Origin: Escherichia phage phiEC1
Direction: 5' to 3' (one strand)
Sequence record: KY608965.1
DNA length: 64,000 nt
Both the position numbers and the translations under genes were made by a program. Position 1 is the stretch's first letter; the number at the start of each line of letters is the position of its first letter. A model generated the notes under the pieces. That model was not told where the DNA came from and ran no database searches. It saw only the letters and a program-made list of their open reading frames with translations. Positions 6,270 to 63,385 of this stretch are shown here, in pieces.

Positions 6270-7849
6270 GTAATAACAATACATACCAACACGTTTCAAA
6301 CGAATCCATTTACGTTGAATTCGACCCTACGGGGACGAATTTTCCAGATACAGTCACTAATGTCCAAGCCGCATTAGCTGCTATTTCTCCTTCAGGTGTT
6401 AATGGTGTACCGGAAGCAACAACTACTACACCAGGAATTATTCAAATAGCTACTCCACAAGAAGTTATTGATGGATTAGATAATAATAAAGCTGTTACTC
6501 CAGCATCACTGAATGCTCGTCTACAATATCCTAATGCAACCGAAACTCAATATGGCTTAACTCGTTATGCTACTGAAGATGAAGCAGTAACCGGAACTAT
6601 TGACGATGCATCAATTACTCCGCTTAAATTGAATCAAAAAATAGACAATGTATTTCAGACAAAAGTGTCAACAGAAGCAACAAATGGTGTAATTAAAATT
6701 TCAACTTCTGCTGCCGCATTAGCTGGTTCTGATGATACAACGGCAATGACTCCGTTAAAAACGCAACAATTAGCAATTAAACTTATTTCACAAATTGCTC
6801 CAAATAATAGTGACGCCACCGAATCTATTACAGGTGTTGTTCGTTTGGCTACAGTTGCTCAAGCACAACAAGGCACCCTGCGTGAAGGCTATGCAATTTC
6901 GCCTTATACCTTTATGAATTCAGTAGCATCAGAAACTAATAAAGGCGTCGTTAAACTAGGGACACAGACTGAAGTAAATAGTAACAACTCTTCAGTTGTA
7001 GTGACCGGCGCAACATTAAACGGGCGTGGGGCTACAACTTCTTTACGTGGAGTTGTTCGTTTAACTACACAAGCGGGTAGCCAATCAGGTGGTGATGGTT
7101 CTTCTGCTCTTGCTTGGAATGCTGATGTTATCCACCAACGAGGCGGACAAACTATTAATGGCACACTTCGCATTAATAATACGTTGACGGTTGGTTCTGG
7201 CGGCGCTAATATAACTGGTAATGTCAATATGACAGGTGGTTATATTCAAGGCAATCGTATTGTGACTCAAAATGAATTAGACCGAATTCTTCCAGTTGGC
7301 GCTATTACAATGTGGGCTGCAGATAGTTTACCGAGTTCCGACTGGCGCTTCTGTCACGGTGGGACTGTTTCTGCTTCAGAATGTCCAGTATATGCTTCCA
7401 GAATTGGGACACGATATGGTGGTAGTTCTTCTAACCCAGGCTTGCCTGATATGCGTGGATTATTTGTTCGTGGCTCAGGTCGTGGCTCTCACTTAACAAA
7501 TCCAAATGTTAATGGTAATGACCAGTTTGGTAAGCCTAGATTAGGTGTAGGTTGTACTGGTGGATATGTTGGTGAAGTACAGAAACAACAGATGTCTTAT
7601 CATAAACACGCTGGCGGATTTGGTGAGCATGATGATTCTGGAGCATTCGGTAATACCCGTAGATCAAATTTTGTTGGTACACGTAAAGGACTTGACTGGG
7701 ATAACCGTTCATACTTCACCAATGACGGATATGAAATTGACCCGGCATCACAACGAAATTCCAAATATACATTAAATCGTCCTGAATTAATTGGAAATGA
7801 AACACGCCCATGGAACATTTCTTTAAACTATATCATTAAGGTAAAATAA
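6266..7849 (+). CDS. 12: Short tail fibre protein gp12
   Basis: 527 aa as in T4 gp12; ATGA overlap with gp11; repeat-rich fibre sequence. Confidence 0.92.
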
Positions 7850-12518: not shown

Positions 12519-14844
<2,326 letters not shown>

Positions 14845-14871: not shown

Positions 14872-16854
14872 ATGTCACTTCTCTCTCCGGGCGTTGAGCT
14901 CAAAGAAACTACCGTACAGAGTACTGTAGTTAATAACTCCACTGGTACTGCTGCCTTGGCTGGAAAATTCCAATGGGGACCTGCATTCCAGATTAAACAA
15001 ATCACTGATGAAGTTGCATTGGTTGATATGTTTGGTACTCCTAATACGGATACAGCAGATTATTTCATGTCTGCTATGAACTTCCTTCAATATGGTAATG
15101 ACCTTCGTGTTGTACGCGCAGTTGACCGTGATACTGCTAAGAACTCATCTCCTGTAGCAGGCAATATTGAATTCACAATCTCTGCTGCTGGTAGTAACTA
15201 TGCAGTTGGTGATAAAATTATCGTTAAGTATTTGACCGAAACTGTTGAAGCAGATGGTTATGTCACTTCAGTTGATGTCGATGGTAAAATTCTTAACATT
15301 TATATCCCAACCGGTAAAATTATTGCTCGTGCAAAAGAAATTAATGAATATCCGGCATTGGGTTCTAACTGGACCGCCGAAGTTGCCAGTTCTTCTTCTG
15401 GACTCTCTGGCGTTATTACAATTGGTTCTATCGTAACCGATTCGGGTATTCTGTTAACTGAAGTTGAAACTTCTGAAGAAGCTATTACTTCTCTAACTTT
15501 CCAAGAATCTATTAAAAAATATGGTGTCCCAGGCGTAGTTGCTCTTTATCCTGGTGAACTTGGCGACCAGCTCGAAATTGAAATCGTATCTAAAGCAGAC
15601 TACGACAAAGGTGCTTCAGCCCAGTTAAAAATTTATCCTGATGGTGGTACTCGCGCATCTACTGCTAAAGCAATCTTTGGGTATGGCCCACAAACTGATG
15701 ACCAATATGCAATTATCGTTCGTCGTAACGATGCTGTAGTCCAGAGTGTAGTTCTTTCTACTAAACGCGGTGAACGCGATATTTATGGTAGTAATATCTT
15801 TATTGATGATTTCTTTGCTAAAGGCGCAAGCAATTATATTTTCGCTACAGCACAAGGTTGGCCAAAAGGTTTCTCTGGCGTAATCAAACTTGGCGGTGGC
15901 TTATCATCTAATGAAACGGTTGACGCTGGCGATTTAATGGAAGCTTGGGATTTGTTTGCTGACCGCGAATCTGTTAATGCGCAGTTGTTTATTGCAGGTT
16001 CTTGTGCAGGTGAATCTTTAGAAGTTGCTTCTACAGTTCAGAAACATGTTGTAGCAATTGGTGATTCTCGCCAAGATTGCTTGGTTCTTTGCTCACCGCC
16101 ACGTGCAACTATAGTCGGTATTCCTGTTAATCGTGCAGTTGATAATCTGGTTGATTGGCGTACTGCGTCAGGAACTTACACTGATAATAACTTTAATGTA
16201 AGTTCTACTTATGCCGCTATTGACGGTAACTATAAATATCAATATGATAAATATAATGATGTGAATCGTTGGGTTCCATTAGCTGCTGATATTGCTGGTC
16301 TTTGTGCTCGCACAGACAATATTTCTCAGCCTTGGATGTCTCCTGCCGGTTATAACCGTGGACAAATTCTTAACGTTATTAAGCTTGCGATTGAAACTCG
16401 CCAAGCACAACGTGATCGTTTGTATCAGGAAGCTATTAACCCTGTTACTGGTACCGGTGGTGATGGGTATGTTCTGTACGGTGATAAAACTGCCACTTCC
16501 GTTCCTTCACCATTTGACCGTATTAACGTTCGTCGTTTGTTCAATATGGTTAAAACGAACATTGGTTCAGCATCTAAATATCGCCTGTTTGAATTGAACA
16601 ACGCATTTACCCGTTCTTCTTTCCGTACAGAGACTTCTCAATATCTACAGGGTATTAAAGCTCTCGGTGGTGTATATAACTTTAAAGTTGTTTGTGATAC
16701 TACCAATAATACCCCAGCAGTTATCGACCGTAATGAATTTGTAGCTACTTTCTACTTACAACCTGCCCGCTCGATAAATTATATTACGTTGAACTTTGTA
16801 GCAACAGCAACTGGTGCCGATTTCGACGAACTGATTGGTGCTGTAGGTGGTTAA
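14872..16854 (+). CDS. 18: Tail sheath protein gp18
   Basis: 660 aa (T4 gp18 is 659 aa); late promoter TATAAATA overlapping the gp17 stop. Confidence 0.95.
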   Translation: MSLLSPGVELKETTVQSTVVNNSTGTAALAGKFQWGPAFQIKQITDEVALVDMFGTPNTDTADYFMSAMNFLQYGNDLRVVRAVDRDTAKNSSPVAGNIEFTISAAGSNYAVGDKIIVKYLTETVEADGYVTSVDVDGKILNIYIPTGKIIARAKEINEYPALGSNWTAEVASSSSGLSGVITIGSIVTDSGILLTEVETSEEAITSLTFQESIKKYGVPGVVALYPGELGDQLEIEIVSKADYDKGASAQLKIYPDGGTRASTAKAIFGYGPQTDDQYAIIVRRNDAVVQSVVLSTKRGERDIYGSNIFIDDFFAKGASNYIFATAQGWPKGFSGVIKLGGGLSSNETVDAGDLMEAWDLFADRESVNAQLFIAGSCAGESLEVASTVQKHVVAIGDSRQDCLVLCSPPRATIVGIPVNRAVDNLVDWRTASGTYTDNNFNVSSTYAAIDGNYKYQYDKYNDVNRWVPLAADIAGLCARTDNISQPWMSPAGYNRGQILNVIKLAIETRQAQRDRLYQEAINPVTGTGGDGYVLYGDKTATSVPSPFDRINVRRLFNMVKTNIGSASKYRLFELNNAFTRSSFRTETSQYLQGIKALGGVYNFKVVCDTTNNTPAVIDRNEFVATFYLQPARSINYITLNFVATATGADFDELIGAVGG

Positions 16855-16886
16855 TAAGACGCCTGATGGGCTATTTCGGTAGCCCA

Positions 16887-24563: not shown

Positions 24564-24590
24564 AAAAAGGGACCGTAAGGTCCCTTTTTT
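24564..24590. terminator. Bidirectional terminator between gene 24 (+) and rnlB (-)
   Basis: AAAAA-GGGACC-GTAA-GGTCCC-TTTTTT. Confidence 0.85.
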
Positions 24591-37224: not shown

Positions 37225-38186
37225 TGTACTCTTTAGAAGAATTTAATAACCAAGCTATAAATGCAGATTTCCAACGAAACAATATGTTTAGTTGTGTATT
37301 TGCTACTACGCCATCGACCAAATCATCTTCACTAATTTCGTCAATTGGTAGTTTTGCTTATAATAACTTAGGGTTGGATTCTGATTGGTTAGGATTGTCT
37401 CAAGGTGATATCAATCAGGGCGTAACAACCCTGATTACAGCAGGAACACAGAAATTAATTCGAAAATCAGGTATAAGTAAATACCTGATTGGAGCAATGA
37501 GTCAACGTACGGTACAAAGCTTGTTAGGTGAGTTCACGGTAGGATCTTATCTGATAGACTTCTTCAATATGGCATATAATAATACAGGTTTAATGATTTA
37601 TTCTGTAAAAATGCCTGAGAACCGATTATCTTATGAAACGGATTTCAACTATAACTCCCCGAACATCCGAATTACCGGCAGAGAAATGGACCCATTAGTA
37701 ATAAGCTTTAGAATGGATTCCGAAGCATCTAACTTTAGAGCAATGCAAGACTGGGTAAACTCGGTCCAAGACCCTGTAACAGGTCTTCGCGCTTTACCAC
37801 AAGACGTCGAAGCAGATATTCAGGTTAATTTACATGCACGAAATGGTTTACCACATACCGCTGTCATGTTCACTGGATGTATTCCTGTTAGTGTCTCTTC
37901 TCCTGAGTTAACGTATGATGGTGATAATCAGATAACAGTTTTTGATGTAACATTTGCTTATCGCGTTATGCAATCAGGTGCTGTAAATAGACAGGCTGCT
38001 TTAGAATGGTTGGAATCAGGACTTATTAGTAGTGTTTCAGGAATGTTTGGAAATAATCAGAATGATTCTGGTCTAGGAAGTGCAGTATCAAGACTTTCTA
38101 GATTAGGTGGGACCGCTGGAGGTGTGTCTAATATAAACACATTGACAGGTGTGGTGAATTCTGCGTCAAGAGTTTTAGGACTATAA
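37224..38186 (+). CDS. 54: Baseplate tail-tube initiator gp54
   Basis: 320 aa as in T4 gp54; synteny. Confidence 0.92.
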   Translation: MYSLEEFNNQAINADFQRNNMFSCVFATTPSTKSSSLISSIGSFAYNNLGLDSDWLGLSQGDINQGVTTLITAGTQKLIRKSGISKYLIGAMSQRTVQSLLGEFTVGSYLIDFFNMAYNNTGLMIYSVKMPENRLSYETDFNYNSPNIRITGREMDPLVISFRMDSEASNFRAMQDWVNSVQDPVTGLRALPQDVEADIQVNLHARNGLPHTAVMFTGCIPVSVSSPELTYDGDNQITVFDVTFAYRVMQSGAVNRQAALEWLESGLISSVSGMFGNNQNDSGLGSAVSRLSRLGGTAGGVSNINTLTGVVNSASRVLGL

Positions 38187-38213
38187 GAAAAAGGGAGACA
38201 ACGTCTCCCTTTA
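38186..38213. terminator. Terminator hairpin after gene 54
   Basis: AGAAAAA-GGGAGAC-AAC-GTCTCCC-TTT. Confidence 0.7.
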
Positions 38214-38512: not shown

Positions 38513-38541
38513 AACGTTTTCCTCATGTTGTTGATGGGATG

Positions 38542-38571
38542 ATAGTATCACACATCCATGTGTTTGTAAAC
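38542..38571 (-). promoter_or_regulatory. Early promoter overlapping the alt stop codon
   Basis: On - strand GTTTAC-N18-(GGATGTGTGA)TACTAT. Confidence 0.65.
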
Positions 38572-45434: not shown

Positions 45435-45469
45435 TTGGTACAGGTATATAATAACATAACCTGTACCAA
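45435..45469. repeat. 11-bp perfect inverted repeat bracketing the -10 of an early promoter
   Basis: TTGGTACAGGT (45435..45445) and ACCTGTACCAA (45459..45469) separated by 13 nt containing the -10. Confidence 0.85.
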
Positions 45470-45476
45470 AGTAAAC
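45448..45476 (-). promoter_or_regulatory. Early promoter for ORF 45041..45406
   Basis: On - strand GTTTAC-N17-(TGT)TATTAT; -10 bracketed by an 11-bp perfect inverted repeat. Confidence 0.65.
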
Positions 45477-49314: not shown

Positions 49315-49343
49315 TTCGATTTCCTCATTGTGTTGGTAGAGTT

Positions 49344-49373
49344 ATAGTATCACAACTCCACCATGTTGTAAAC
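49344..49373 (-). promoter_or_regulatory. Early promoter upstream of ORF 49078..49314 (and probably the DAHP synthase-cd operon)
   Basis: On - strand GTTTAC-N18-(GTTGTGA)TACTAT. Confidence 0.65.
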
Positions 49374-51441: not shown

Positions 51442-51469
51442 TTAGATTTCCTCAATTATCCATAGGAGC

Positions 51470-51499
51470 ATTATACTCTGCTCCTGAGAGTTTGTAAAC
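51470..51499 (-). promoter_or_regulatory. Early promoter for ORF 51142..51441
   Basis: On - strand GTTTAC-N18-TATAAT; -10 bracketed by a 7-bp inverted repeat. Confidence 0.55.
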
Positions 51500-52874: not shown

Positions 52875-52904
52875 ATAGTATCACCATCCTTGGTGTTTGT
52901 AAAC
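52875..52904 (-). promoter_or_regulatory. Early promoter for alc
   Basis: On - strand GTTTAC-N18-(GGATGGTGA)TACTAT. Confidence 0.65.
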
Positions 52905-54057: not shown

Positions 54058-54087
54058 ATTGTACCACAATCCTTGTGGTATGTAAAC
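54058..54087 (-). promoter_or_regulatory. Early promoter for rnlA, overlapping denA stop
   Basis: On - strand GTTTAC-N18-TACAAT. Confidence 0.6.
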
Positions 54088-58008: not shown

Positions 58009-58071
58009 ATATTCCTCAGTATAGGTTGATAGACATTACTCCAAACGGGATAGTATTTATCCCGTTAATTT

Positions 58072-59798: not shown

Positions 59799-60047
59799 TT
59801 ATTTCCTCAGATTTTTCTTAACAACTTTCCAATCAGCTTTAAACGATTCAACATCAGAGTGGCAAATCCAGAATCCTGCGCTTTCGCCGTCTTCATAAAG
59901 TGGACATCCATCACATTCTTCATTCCAGCCCATTTCACGTAAAGCTGCTTCAGCTTGTTCAAGGAGTTCAGCATCTTTATCAAGGATGTTGAAGTACCAT
60001 TTGCCTTTAACTTCAGAATCGTTAATGCTTTGGCGTTGTAATTTCAT
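59799..60047 (-). CDS. Hypothetical early protein (frd.1 position)
   Basis: 82-aa ORF with ATG; early promoter 60084..60113. Confidence 0.55.
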   Translation of the reverse strand: MKLQRQSINDSEVKGKWYFNILDKDAELLEQAEAALREMGWNEECDGCPLYEDGESAGFWICHSDVESFKADWKVVKKNLRK

Positions 60048-60075
60048 TTTATTCTCCGTTGCTTCATTTGTTTTG

Positions 60076-60106
60076 ACAGGGTAATAGTATCACACCATTA
60101 CCCTGT
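60076..60106. repeat. 10-bp perfect inverted repeat bracketing the -10 of an early promoter
   Basis: ACAGGGTAAT (60076..60085) and ATTACCCTGT (60097..60106) separated by 11 nt containing the -10. Confidence 0.85.
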
Positions 60107-60113
60107 TGTATAC
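60084..60113 (-). promoter_or_regulatory. Early promoter for ORF 59799..60047
   Basis: On - strand GTATAC-N18-(GGTGTGA)TACTAT; -10 bracketed by a 10-bp perfect inverted repeat. Confidence 0.6.
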
Positions 60114-60475
60114 TATTTTATTCCAAAAATTTCTTTAATTTCTGCAATCACATCTCGAGCATTTTCCGTAGTCACTTCAAAGATGAGTGATTGTTTAGAA
60201 ATAGACTCTGGAGATACCTCGATGAAGTGTTTAAACTCATCATCATAAAGCTCAAAATATGAACCTGGCTTACCATCAAAACCGAATTCAGTACCGTCTC
60301 GCATAGTTACACGGGTTACACATTTATCATCATCATAATCTGTGTTCATGTCTTTTACAACAAAACTAGGACCATGAAGCTCAATCAAAGCCAGCATATC
60401 GGCGTTTTGTGGGCATTCATTGGCGAAGATAGCTTTACATTCTGGATTGATGATATAAGTTTTTCCAATTTTCAT
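60113..60475 (-). CDS. Hypothetical early protein, tandem paralogue A
   Basis: 120-aa ORF; clear similarity to the ORF at 60537..60923 (…YIINP…FANEC…HGPSFVV…VTM.DGTE…YFE.Y..EFK.F.EV…). Confidence 0.6.
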   Translation of the reverse strand: MKIGKTYIINPECKAIFANECPQNADMLALIELHGPSFVVKDMNTDYDDDKCVTRVTMRDGTEFGFDGKPGSYFELYDDEFKHFIEVSPESISKQSLIFEVTTENARDVIAEIKEIFGIK

Positions 60476-60507
60476 TTTGATTTCCTCTCATTTGTTTTGA
60501 TAGGATT

Positions 60508-60537
60508 ACTATAACATAGTCCTATCTTTTTGTATAC
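60508..60537 (-). promoter_or_regulatory. Early promoter for ORF 60113..60475
   Basis: On - strand GTATAC-N18-TATAGT; flanked by GATAGGA/TCCTATC inverted repeat. Confidence 0.55.
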
Positions 60538-60952: not shown

Positions 60953-60981
60953 ATACTAACACATTCAGGGAAGAAGTAAAC
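60953..60981 (-). promoter_or_regulatory. Early promoter for ORF 60537..60923
   Basis: On - strand GTTTAC-N17-(GAATGTGT)TAGTAT. Confidence 0.6.
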
Positions 60982-61005: not shown

Positions 61006-61030
61006 CTCAAAAGGGAGACCGAAGTCTCCC
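61006..61030 (-). terminator. Rho-independent terminator after gene 32
   Basis: On - strand GGGAGAC-TTCG-GTCTCCC followed by TTTTGAG. Confidence 0.85.
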
Positions 61031-61036
61031 GATTTA

Positions 61037-61939
61037 TTATAGACCAGCTAACAGGTCATCGAGGTCGCCATCATCAGAGGATGAGGTAGAGCTCATGAAG
61101 TCATCTTCAGTTTTTGCAGAACTAAAGGCTTCCATGTCTTTATCAAAATCGTCAAGGTCAGAAGCAACTTTATCTGCAACAGAAGCTGCTGCGGCTGCTG
61201 CACCACCAAGAGCGGCAGTACCAAGAACCTTAGCGAAAGATTCATTTAATTTTTCAAAGGACTTGAACTGGTCTTTAGCCGTCAAAGTAGTAAGGTCTAC
61301 CATCTGGTCATATAGTTCTTTCTGGAATGCTTCGTCATTAATACGAGGAATTTCAGATTGACCCAAGAATTTAGATTCGTCGTAGTTGCTAAAACCAGAA
61401 ACCTGCTTAGCTTTCAGAACGAAGTTGGCACCTTCAAACGGACAAGTAACATCAACCGGAGTTTCACCCATTTCGGTATCAACTGCAATCATTGCATTGA
61501 TTTTGTCCCAAATCTTTTTACCGAAACGATATTTAAATACTTTACCTTCGTTATCTGGAGCTTGAGGGTCTTTAACAACCAGAATATTAGCCCAATAAGA
61601 AGTTTTACGTTTCAGTTGAGAATATTCAGTTTTGTTGGTATTGTACAGGTCATTTTTACTAATGTACTGACATACAGGACAAGAGTCGTAATCACCATGT
61701 GTAGAAGAGCAATTTTCAATATACCATTTACCATTTTTCTTGAAACCGTGGTTAACAAGAATTGCAAATGGTAGTGCGTCATCAGTTTTTGCTGGCAGGA
61801 AACGAATTACCGCTTGACCATTACCTGATGCATCTAGCTTCAGCTTCCATTCGCCTTTATCTTCTGAAGAGAAACCTTTGTTACCGTTCAGTTTAGCCAT
61901 TTGAGCAGCGAGGTCAGCAGTAGATTTACGTTTAAACAT
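61037..61939 (-). CDS. 32: Single-stranded DNA-binding protein gp32
   Basis: 300 aa; zinc site (…[15 protein letters not shown]…), acidic C-terminus; matches recalled T4 gp32. Confidence 0.97.
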
Positions 61940-62709: not shown

Positions 62710-63385
62710 ATTTCCATCCGGACCATTTTGAAGATTTAAGTCTATATGTAACTAAAGACGCAGAAATATTAAAAACATTTGAAACTTCTTTACACGAGGC
62801 GTATTTTATACCATCAATAATTATAGGTTTTTGTTTTTTAATAGTTCTTTCTTTAGAATGCGACTTTGAATTTGCTATTCTAAGAGCTTCTTTGGTTGAA
62901 TCAGGCATCGGCTTATTCGTTTTTCGCCCTTTTCGGACTTTACTCAAGGCCAATTTGTGAGCTTCAGATAGTTTCTTACCCTTATTAGGTGACGGTATTT
63001 TTCTTTCTAGTCTTGTTTTAGATACTTTAGCCTTAGTCTCTTCAGATCTAGGTTTACCTAATTTAGAAAGTGAAATAGACCTTTTAGCTTCATCACTTTG
63101 TTTTTTACCAGGACCACCTTTACCACCGGGAACTAAGTTATAAGTATCATCTCGCAAAACAAAATCTTCGTTAACCAATTCTGCTTCTTTTTTATAGGCG
63201 TCCTTGTCATTATCATATTCATAAAGAATTTCGGTATAAAAATTTTTTAGTCCATATTTAGCTTTGGCCGCTAATATAGCGCGGCCTGATCCAATATACC
63301 AATCTTTCTCTTTATGTTTTTTGTGTACGCCTATATAAATTTTACCATTTATTTTATTGGTAGTTTTATACACAACGTATTTCAT
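62702..63385 (-). CDS. GIY-YIG homing endonuclease (seg-like), inserted between genes 33 and 59
   Basis: N-terminal GIY-YIG motifs (YVVYKTTNKINGKIYIGVHKK…WYIGSG), NLVPGGKGGPG, Lys-rich C-terminal DNA-binding tail …SCKEVSNVFNISASLVTYRLK…WSGWKY. Confidence 0.85.
   Translation of the reverse strand: MKYVVYKTTNKINGKIYIGVHKKHKEKDWYIGSGRAILAAKAKYGLKNFYTEILYEYDNDKDAYKKEAELVNEDFVLRDDTYNLVPGGKGGPGKKQSDEAKRSISLSKLGKPRSEETKAKVSKTRLERKIPSPNKGKKLSEAHKLALSKVRKGRKTNKPMPDSTKEALRIANSKSHSKERTIKKQKPIIIDGIKYASCKEVSNVFNISASLVTYRLKSSKWSGWKYD

Follow-up and report, generated by a model that had tools for sequence, protein, structure and literature searches.

An inverted repeat across an early promoter of Escherichia phage phiEC1 and its likely identity as a PeSL-type stem-loop cassette

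Why should the -10 box of an early phage promoter lie between the arms of a perfect inverted repeat? We address this question at a site upstream of the frd.1 homologue in a 64,000-nucleotide stretch of Escherichia phage phiEC1 (KY608965.1), the whole of which we refer to as the window. An initial annotation had described a perfect 10-bp inverted repeat bracketing this -10, and the description holds in both its parts: on the + strand, 60076-60085 (ACAGGGTAAT) and 60097-60106 (ATTACCCTGT) are fully complementary across an 11-nt spacer, and the -10 hexamer TACTAT (60084-60089, minus strand) falls inside the repeat. The arms reach 13 nt if one G.T mismatch is allowed (60076-60088 and 60094-60106, 5-nt loop). 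This architecture has already been described in the literature as that of promoter-early stem-loops (PeSLs), and the element at 60076-60106 is very probably a PeSL-type cassette. We hold with moderate confidence to the fuller statement, that of a PeSL-type cassette whose stem-loop marks where the upstream gene ends in read-through RNA and which itself forms a joint between exchangeable gene blocks.

Locus and promoter architecture

The region around the repeat (59-62 kb of the window) is 100% identical to Escherichia phage Mizar (PV714129) and shares about 97% identity with LH01 and related phages classified as Mosigvirus (RB69-like T-even phages); 38-58 kb shows 97.4-97.8% identity to Mizar, LH01, CAU_ECP01 and ATK47 (about 97.6% to Mizar). 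These identities mark the window as T-even DNA of the RB69-like Mosigvirus type. The offset to the Mizar record shifts along the window, and coordinates taken from the Mizar annotation are exact for 59-62 kb only. Genes on the minus strand follow a T4-like order: 32, the frd.2 homologue, an extra 120-aa ORF, the frd.1 homologue, frd and td. The extra ORF (60113..60475, minus strand; PHROG 622, function unknown) sits between two promoter cassettes, at 60499-60536 and 60045-60115.

Read along the minus strand, the second of these cassettes opens with the stop codon of the upstream ORF (TAG, 60115-60113, in the sequence AAAATAG), which abuts the -35 hexamer TATACA (60107..60112) at a stop-to--35 distance of 0 nt. 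The 17-nt spacer ACAGGGTAATGGTGTGA between -35 and -10 holds the 5' arm (ACAGGGTAAT on this strand; 60097..60106, the first 10 nt of the spacer) and a TGn motif (60092-60090), which together with TACTAT (60089-60084) makes an extended -10 (60084..60092) in the loop of the perfect DNA repeat. The 3' arm (ATTACCCTGT on this strand; 60076..60085) begins with the final 2 nt of the -10 and reaches about +1. Past the -10 the order is TACCCTGT, CAAAACAAATGAAGCAAC, GGAG, AATAAA and ATG, down to 60045, the Shine-Dalgarno GGAG (60057-60054) and the ATG (60047-60045) of the frd.1 homologue forming the 3' end of the cassette (60045..60057). We infer promoter activity here, and standard sigma-70 geometry would place the start site at 60077/60076. 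Folded as sense RNA, the region gives a predicted 14-bp hairpin with three G.U pairs (-19.1 kcal/mol, z = -4.39; 0 of 200 shuffles as good), in which the 5' strand of the stem is prolonged to 60093 through G.U pairs, UGA makes up the loop and the -10 hexamer becomes part of the 3' strand.

Four further promoters had been named as sharing the arrangement with different arms. All are present as described, and all lie on the minus strand; the one at 38537..38570 (-35 38565-38570, -10 38542-38547) is weak, its 5-bp repeat GGATG/CATCC at 38537-38557 having a minimum free energy (MFE) of -6.1 kcal/mol that is indistinguishable from background. The neighbouring cassette at 60499..60536 has a -35 TATACA (60531-60536), a -10 TATAGT (60508-60513) and the stem GATAGGA/TCCTATC (60499-60526; RNA MFE -10.4 kcal/mol). 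That at 51459..51498 combines a -35 TTTACA (51493-51498) and a -10 TATAAT (51470-51475) with the stem AGGAGCA/TGCTCCT (51464-51485; MFE -12.2 kcal/mol). At 49334..49372, a position orthologous to the curated early promoter Pe133295 of the T4 GenBank record, a -35 TTTACA (49367-49372) and a -10 TACTAT (49344-49349) accompany a stem at 49334-49363 of 10 bp with one mismatch, which is a G.U on the sense RNA (13 bp counting G.U pairs). Two minus-strand promoters extend this list. The cassette at 45435..45475 (-35 TTTACT 45470-45475, -10 TATTAT 45448-45453; MFE -18.0 kcal/mol) places perfect 11-bp arms, TTGGTACAGGT/ACCTGTACCAA, around its -10 (45435-45469). The promoter at 54058..54086 (-35 54081-54086, -10 54058-54063; MFE -8.2 kcal/mol) carries an 8-bp hairpin, TACCACAA gga TTGTGGTA (54062-54080), that lies almost entirely in the spacer, its final two bases overlapping the -10. 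A hairpin at 52882-52895 is likewise wholly or almost wholly inside a promoter spacer.

Hairpin frequency at early promoters

Taken alone, one perfect 10-bp repeat would not stand out in 64 kb; the window holds five with loops of 3-16 nt (expected 1.5 ± 1.3), two of which sit on early promoters. Promoter-like sites were chosen independently of the repeats, as TTTACW-N16-18-TAYWAT followed by a Shine-Dalgarno and start codon within 70 nt. The 13 window sites were picked from a scan allowing two mismatches. A genome-scale set, for which no more than one mismatch overall was allowed, covered Mizar 1-87436 together with the window and gave 43 sites, all on the early-gene strand and none on the opposite strand. 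The segment folded consisted of the spacer, the -10 and 20 nt, and hairpins of ≤ -10 kcal/mol were counted as strong.

The 13 window promoters have a mean MFE of -9.15 kcal/mol, vs -4.68 ± 0.6 for shuffles that preserve the -10 (0 of 2000 as low) and -5.9 ± 0.69 for chimeras joining a promoter's own spacer to another promoter's downstream half (0 of 5000 as low). Strong hairpins occur at 5 of the 13, as opposed to 6.7% of same-strand background 43-mers (P = 0.001), and at 17 of the 43 genome-scale sites, as opposed to 6% of background 43-mers (P = 1.5e-10); repeats are thus commoner near early promoters than in matched windows, the reverse of the even spread that the initial annotation had named as counting against it. 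The genome-scale set also stands apart from shuffles (z = -16.8) and from cross-promoter permutations (z = -9.6).

An independent metagenome sample behaves in the same way. In IMG/VR, the pattern GTTTACA-N14-TGN-TACTAT, which leaves both arm positions free, yielded 119 unique sites whose own-pair mean MFE is -7.67 kcal/mol vs -4.98 ± 0.23 for cross pairs (z = -11.5). Hairpins of ≤ -10 kcal/mol are found at 34% of sites in contigs with T4-like proteins vs 11% in other contigs (P = 0.003). Chance is excluded for the promoter set as a whole. As a side observation, to which we attach little weight because its gap calling is noisy, a heuristic survey of all intergenic gaps found more hairpins than in random segments, with or without promoters (62% vs 38%).

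Gap length and the level of action

The distribution of hairpins depends on the space available between genes. As the gap we take the number of nucleotides separating the -35 from the closest stop codon upstream that ends a sizeable ORF. In Mizar plus the window, strong embedded hairpins are present at 17 of 32 promoters with a gap of ≤25 nt and at 0 of 11 with a longer one (P = 0.0013); a strong hairpin is absent from the other 15 with tight gaps, and an embedded hairpin is therefore not obligatory there. A separate upstream hairpin appears in 5 of 6 clean gaps of 26-100 nt in the same sequences, including 5 of 5 between 30 and 56 nt. In these five the promoter itself is hairpin-free, and the hairpin between stop and promoter reaches -12.8 to -16.4 kcal/mol. 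Such stand-alone hairpins mostly have a G+C-rich stem, a UUCG loop and a U-run. The locus provides its own contrast: the minus-strand promoter at 60953-60980 has a stop-to--35 gap of 56 nt and no embedded hairpin (MFE -3.1 kcal/mol), and upstream of it, after gene 32, stands a UUCG-tetraloop terminator, GGGAGACTTCGGTCTCCC followed by TTTTG (61030-61013, minus strand). T4 repeats the pattern, with embedded structures in 13 of 21 tight-gap promoters vs 3 of 16 others (P = 0.010) and an upstream hairpin in 8 of 11 mid-length gaps. Embedded and stand-alone hairpins substitute for each other, which is expected of an RNA role at the end of the upstream cistron and not of the tuning of promoter DNA.

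We propose that the repeat is the stem-loop part of a PeSL-type cassette, a compact T4-type intergenic unit of about 65 nt that includes a short leader ahead of the Shine-Dalgarno. With the stop codon touching the -35 there is no room for a separate hairpin, so that its arms would take the only positions free of sigma-70 contacts, namely the upstream spacer and the stretch from -6 to +1; the arms would bracket the -10 because these are the sole positions not fixed by sigma-70. Transcripts from the cassette's own promoter would start where the 3' arm ends and would not contain the hairpin. With the predicted +1 in the closing bases of that arm, both arms would occur only in read-through RNA: transcripts arriving from upstream promoters would carry the 14-bp hairpin just past the upstream stop. 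On that RNA it may mark the end of the cistron, by attenuating or weakly terminating transcription and/or by blocking 3' exonucleases, and so do the job that stand-alone terminator hairpins would do where space allows. A sister class of early promoters, present in Mizar, T4 and relatives from metagenomes and exemplified by the one upstream of regB, has a spacer that pairs with the Shine-Dalgarno of the next gene, an arrangement that makes sense only in RNA; this class accounts for 0 of the 13 window promoter sites. Of the structural options first offered for the repeat, a stem in read-through RNA is consequently the better supported, by the gap rule, the +1 position and the Shine-Dalgarno-pairing class, and a cruciform has nothing specific in its favour.

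The embedded hairpins are not intrinsic terminators of the usual form. No U-run follows the embedded stems on the sense strand, their tails being CAAAACAAAUGA (as at 60076-60106) or CUAUCAAC, and a minus-strand terminator scan lists the gene 32 terminator (61013-61030) and none of the embedded hairpins, that at 60076-60106 included. Given both results we speak of a putative attenuation and/or 3'-end protection; termination at these hairpins, if any, is probably partial or factor-dependent. A search of the literature for mapped 3' ends or start sites in T4 found nothing usable. We also rejected an antisense terminator: TTTTT follows the 60499-60526 stem on the + strand, and elsewhere the tail is the complement of the -35 (TGTAAA...), so the idea does not generalize.

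Another RNA-level account, which we consider unlikely, would have the read-through RNA cut just before the hairpin, in an A/U-rich stretch near the stop and -35. This would leave the hairpin at the very 5' end of the downstream message, which it would then shield from 5'-end-dependent decay by RNase E. It fits every statistic that favours an RNA-level role, and the layout suits it: the A/U-rich single-stranded segment UAAAAUAGUAUACAAC lies immediately 5' of the 60076-60106 hairpin, and the leader and Shine-Dalgarno of the next gene come after. It leaves unexplained why the embedded hairpins are replaced by terminator-type hairpins with U-runs, which are 3'-end elements of the upstream gene.

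A role for structure in the DNA itself is quite unlikely. It could take the form of a cruciform on supercoiled DNA or a single-strand hairpin, with the -10 in the loop modulating the open complex, or, under that same low estimate, of a target for structure-specific nucleases (endonuclease VII, gp46/47) that stimulates recombination. The 60076-60106 region does fold better than shuffles as a DNA strand (-8.9 kcal/mol, z = -4.68), and the repeats at 60076-60106, 45435-45469 and 51464-51485 are perfect on both strands. Moreover, PeSL stem-loops are reported to halt sequencing polymerases when the template is single-stranded, and crossovers to map within the loop or beside it (PMC2839356). At 49334-49363, however, the sense RNA folds to -16.9 kcal/mol and the antisense strand to only -8.1. 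The position of the hairpin relative to the -10 is variable, lying in the spacer at 54062-54080 and 52882-52895, and its register shifts between orthologues; promoter mechanics, furthermore, do not predict the loss of embedded hairpins downstream of a stand-alone terminator. On energetic grounds, repeats of the dimensions found here (7-11 bp stems, central spacers of 8-14 nt) are ill suited to cruciform extrusion.

Strand counts of mismatches bear less on this choice than they first appear to. Inside stems, G.T outnumbers A.C by 7:0 and 11:4, an excess that we rejected as decisive proof of an RNA-level stem: it stems from pairs involving the fixed TGn and -10 bases, and outside these the ratio is 3:3. 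Sense-strand stability is therefore largely a property of the promoter consensus (...ATGGTGTGATACTAT), and the counts are compatible with a DNA-level role too.

Changing arms, cassette exchange and related systems

The hairpin at this position is maintained while its arms change. All 13 of 13 IMG/VR loci that encode frd.1 relatives have this promoter type with a hairpin (-15.6 to -20.1 kcal/mol), and their arms vary, with pairs such as AGGGCTAT/ATAGCCCT, GATAGGGTA/TACCCTATC, GGAGCTAT/ATAGCTCC and GGTGTAAGAT/ATCTTACACC. T4 also has a hairpin at the corresponding frd.2-frd.1 promoter, near 146.1 kb, with the sequence GTTTACA-TCAGGGTAGTAGTGTGA-TACTAT-TACCCTATC. RNAalifold returned no consensus hairpin from an ungapped alignment of 11 orthologous promoters, because stem registers differ slightly between lineages. 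In a same-register subset, selected for folding and hence illustrative, compensatory double changes are seen at 3 of 7 pairs, and pairing holds in 95.7% of cells. The promoter at 60499-60536 offers a stepwise example at one stem position: the window has A-U there, mobillu has G-C, and both SHSML-52-1 and LH01 have G.U. Among 25 hairpin-bearing promoters of the IMG/VR sample, the arms take no fewer than 19 distinct sequences. The initial annotation had argued from differing arms for a structural role over a single sequence-specific repressor, and this reasoning is borne out: arms vary between promoters and between orthologues with complementarity kept, which excludes a common operator.

The cassettes also mark where gene content differs. 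SHSML-52-1 and mobillu lack the 120-aa ORF (60113-60475) and one cassette; in its place is a single hybrid cassette, the left part of which matches 60499-60536 and the right, Shine-Dalgarno part 60045-60075. The two cassettes around this ORF have the flanks AGTATACAA and TCAAAACAAATGA in common, and the roughly 60 nt of similar sequence that the cassettes share would make them crossover points for the insertion and deletion of gene cassettes. LH01 has a second indel, an insertion that separates frd from frd.1 and has no cassettes at its boundaries, so PeSLs do not account for all of the indels here.

Such exchange raises the thought that the repeats have no function of their own and are neutral scars or passengers of cassette mobility, left by recombination or template switching between PeSLs. 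The cassette-bounded indels at the locus speak for it, as does the T4 GenBank record, in which the 14 nt between the Pe133295 arms were once reported inverted, a sign that the repeats invite rearrangement or error. We nevertheless judge it very unlikely. Neutral scars would decay, whereas here arms change with pairing kept, compensatory double changes and G.U intermediates included; complementarity is promoter-specific in both the genome-scale and the metagenome permutations; and the dependence on gap length recurs in two genomes. Least of all do we credit pure chance, or an operator whose palindrome would be bound by a dimeric protein, for although a perfect 10-bp palindrome-like repeat over a promoter is classic operator geometry and one such repeat per 64 kb is within expectation, arms that differ at every promoter and between orthologues could not all be read by a single protein, and the permutation and background tests exclude chance for the set.

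The closest published counterparts of the proposed stem-loop cassette are the PeSLs of RB49 and phi1, which run from an upstream stop through an A/T-rich region, -35, -10 and stem-loop to a Shine-Dalgarno and ATG, most often with the stem-loop in the interval from -35 to -10 or across the -10 (Arbiol et al. 2010, PMC2839356). Feature by feature, the 60045-60115 unit corresponds: it begins at an upstream stop in an A/T-rich stretch (TAG 60113-60115, abutting the -35); its sigma-70 boxes lie within the 17 ± 1 bp spacing (TATACA-17-TACTAT with TGn, one -35 mismatch); a stable stem-loop is placed in the promoter (-19.1 kcal/mol, z = -4.39); a Shine-Dalgarno and start codon close its 3' end (GGAG 60054-60057, ATG 60045-60047); copies are many among early ORFs (the window has 13 promoter sites, the set that adds Mizar 1-87436 has 43, and every one is on the early strand); and an ORF indel, the absence of 60113-60475 from SHSML-52-1 and mobillu, has its junctions inside cassettes. 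The likeness extends to G-T stem pairs, to stem-loops between the boxes or over the -10, and to cassettes that flank small ORFs of unknown function gained and lost. The RB49/phi1 elements differ in their near-perfect TTGACA/TATAAT boxes and G-run/C-run stems, where those here have TTTACW or TATACA as -35 and mixed, A/T-richer stems. Promoter, attenuator or terminator and mini-circle activities have been demonstrated for RB49/phi1 only: in the one published terminator test, a G/C-rich RB49 stem lowered lacZ expression as much as rrnB T1 does, and ORFs were excised as mini-circles when cassettes recombined (PMC2839356).

PeSLs of PST and T4 come closer in sequence, with an early consensus TTTACW-N17-TAYWAT and stems of the form AGnA-loop-TCnT, such as AGGGTA...TACCCT (Comeau et al. 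2014, PMC4122927). The promoters here have the same consensus and the same stem type, AGGGTA...TACCCT stems among them. A figure legend in that paper puts the PST stem-loops 'just upstream of the promoter'; many of those here and in T4 are instead inside it, with the -10 in or adjoining the loop, specifically where the stop abuts the -35. The genome studied here, of Mosigvirus type, adds to those covered by that analysis. Promoter-plus-stem-loop elements have likewise been described at T-even internal-protein loci (Repoila et al. 1994, as cited in PMC2839356), and related elements are present at the internal-protein loci of Mizar (record 76952-77687).

Two better-known RNA elements invite comparison. 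In T4 genes e, soc, 49 and I-TevI, a hairpin hides the ribosome-binding site on long transcripts and a promoter lies in its 5' strand (PMC3014915); as proposed here, the embedded promoter yields two kinds of RNA, of which the read-through kind folds and the promoter-proximal kind does not. In those T4 hairpins the pairing involves the Shine-Dalgarno or AUG, and the promoters are late ones. The 60076-60106 hairpin contains an early one and ends about 20 nt before the Shine-Dalgarno, and we rejected sequestration of the ribosome-binding site, as the stem ends at 60076 and the GGAG at 60054-60057 is unpaired in the MFE fold. With intrinsic terminators the element shares a stable stem-loop just beyond a stop codon, and in these genomes it is positionally interchangeable with true terminators; it differs from them in having no U-run after the sense-strand stem. 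A search of 38000-64000 against Rfam 15 gave 0 matches at or above the gathering score.

What is modestly new is the complementary distribution of embedded and stand-alone hairpins by gap length in two genomes; the available text of the published PeSL papers lists stem-loop positions and does not state this distribution. The gap-length rule, seen in Mizar plus the window and replicated in T4, argues, in a simple and testable way, for an action of the stem-loops on read-through RNA where the upstream gene ends. It also raises a question beyond the PeSL papers, as far as their available text goes, namely how a hairpin without a U-run attenuates or stabilizes RNA. For annotation, such repeats are better labelled promoter/stem-loop cassettes than operators or cruciforms. 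The established picture of T4 early transcription is unaffected by these findings.

We venture one generalization, as a tentative idea that is possible rather than probable: T-even phages might follow a placement rule of one end-of-cistron hairpin per early joint, which, where the stop abuts the -35, becomes part of the promoter, holds the -10 in its loop and lacks a U-run, spacers encoding the 5' strand of either a short hairpin or a longer one that hides the Shine-Dalgarno. If this were true, promoter-proximal and read-through transcripts of one gene would be systematically different molecules, and hairpins without a U-run would need a non-canonical way, factor-assisted or decay-based, of ending or stabilizing RNA. 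In T4-type therapeutic phages, the cassettes mark likely boundaries of exchangeable gene cassettes.

Loop orientation in the T4 element

The T4 element orthologous to window 49334-49363 lies at 14263-14341 of comparison locus L144 (T4 record 133262-133340), with arms GGTAGAG/CTCTACC. The T4 GenBank record flags 14 nt at 133300-133313 as 'inverted complement of previously reported sequence', a change that corrects early promoter Pe133295. On the minus strand these nucleotides read TTGTGATATTATAG and coincide exactly with the loop that the two arms enclose, -10 included. Either the repeat provoked a mistake in the older sequencing, or the loop really flips between its arms.

Leaders and stems outside the cassettes

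Most PeSL-type cassettes carry a conserved start region and leader 3' of the -10 (..CCTATCAAC.. or ..TCAAAACAAATGA..), both being C/A-rich and G-poor (for example, window 60063-60075 and 60486-60498); the conserved stretch after the -10 is likely to include the start site. The hairpin AGGGGCT-atca-AGCCCCT in the 45-nt T4 frd.3-frd.2 intergenic gap (T4 locus L019, 5031-5075) has neither promoter nor U-run, showing that such stems exist without a promoter too. At window 58044-58066, in the nrdA.1/nrdA.2-homologue region, a perfect 9-bp repeat (AACGGGATA/TATCCCGTT) surrounds TACTAT, lacks a TTTACW -35 and is followed by a T-rich tail on the plus strand. Three other perfect repeats, of 10-11 bp with short loops, occur at window 24564-24589, 37465-37490 and 38190-38212, two of them flanked on both sides by A-runs/T-runs (AAAAAGGGACC...GGTCCCTTTTT; AAAGGGAGAC...GTCTCCCTTT); the flanked repeats resemble bidirectional terminators located at strand switches.

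Relationship to Mizar and small ORFs around frd.1

Comparing window 33000-64000 with Mizar (PV714129) gives 100% identity across 59-62 kb and only about 97.6%, with small indels, across 38-58 kb, and the offset to PV714129 shifts along the window (87216 to 87223 to 87436). The window thus looks like a mosaic relative of Mizar and LH01. Between two cassettes whose flanks are identical sits a minus-strand 120-aa ORF (PHROG 622; window 60113-60475), which is missing from SHSML-52-1 and mobillu and has no T4 counterpart at the same position. T4 has, between its promoter cassette and frd.1, an unannotated 22-codon hydrophobic ORF (MFAPYIMAAVMLVCLYLLIKAC; L019 4506-4643, T4 record 146005-146142) with its own GGAG and ATG, which is found in comparison locus L007 too and is absent from the window. 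In LH01, frd is separated from the frd.1 homologue by two additional small ORFs (L018 890-1329, LH01 record 146112-146551), which are packed with zero intergenic space, and this indel has no promoter cassettes at its borders.

Early promoters pairing with a Shine-Dalgarno region

A second early-promoter class contains in its spacer an anti-Shine-Dalgarno run, such as CTCCTCTAGTTG, perfectly complementary to the Shine-Dalgarno region of the next gene (CAACTAGAGGAG). Members lie upstream of regB in Mizar (L004 about 16800-16860, Mizar record about 61800-61858), at about 7380-7433 of comparison locus L003, and in T4 at 62796, 65412, 8217, 53942, 130309 and 166806. The same logic of hiding and freeing a ribosome-binding site is known from T4 e, soc, 49 and I-TevI (PMC3014915), but those are late promoters, whereas the class here is early; we found no description of this logic at early promoters in the literature. 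The ribosome-binding site should be hidden on read-through RNA and free on promoter-proximal RNA.
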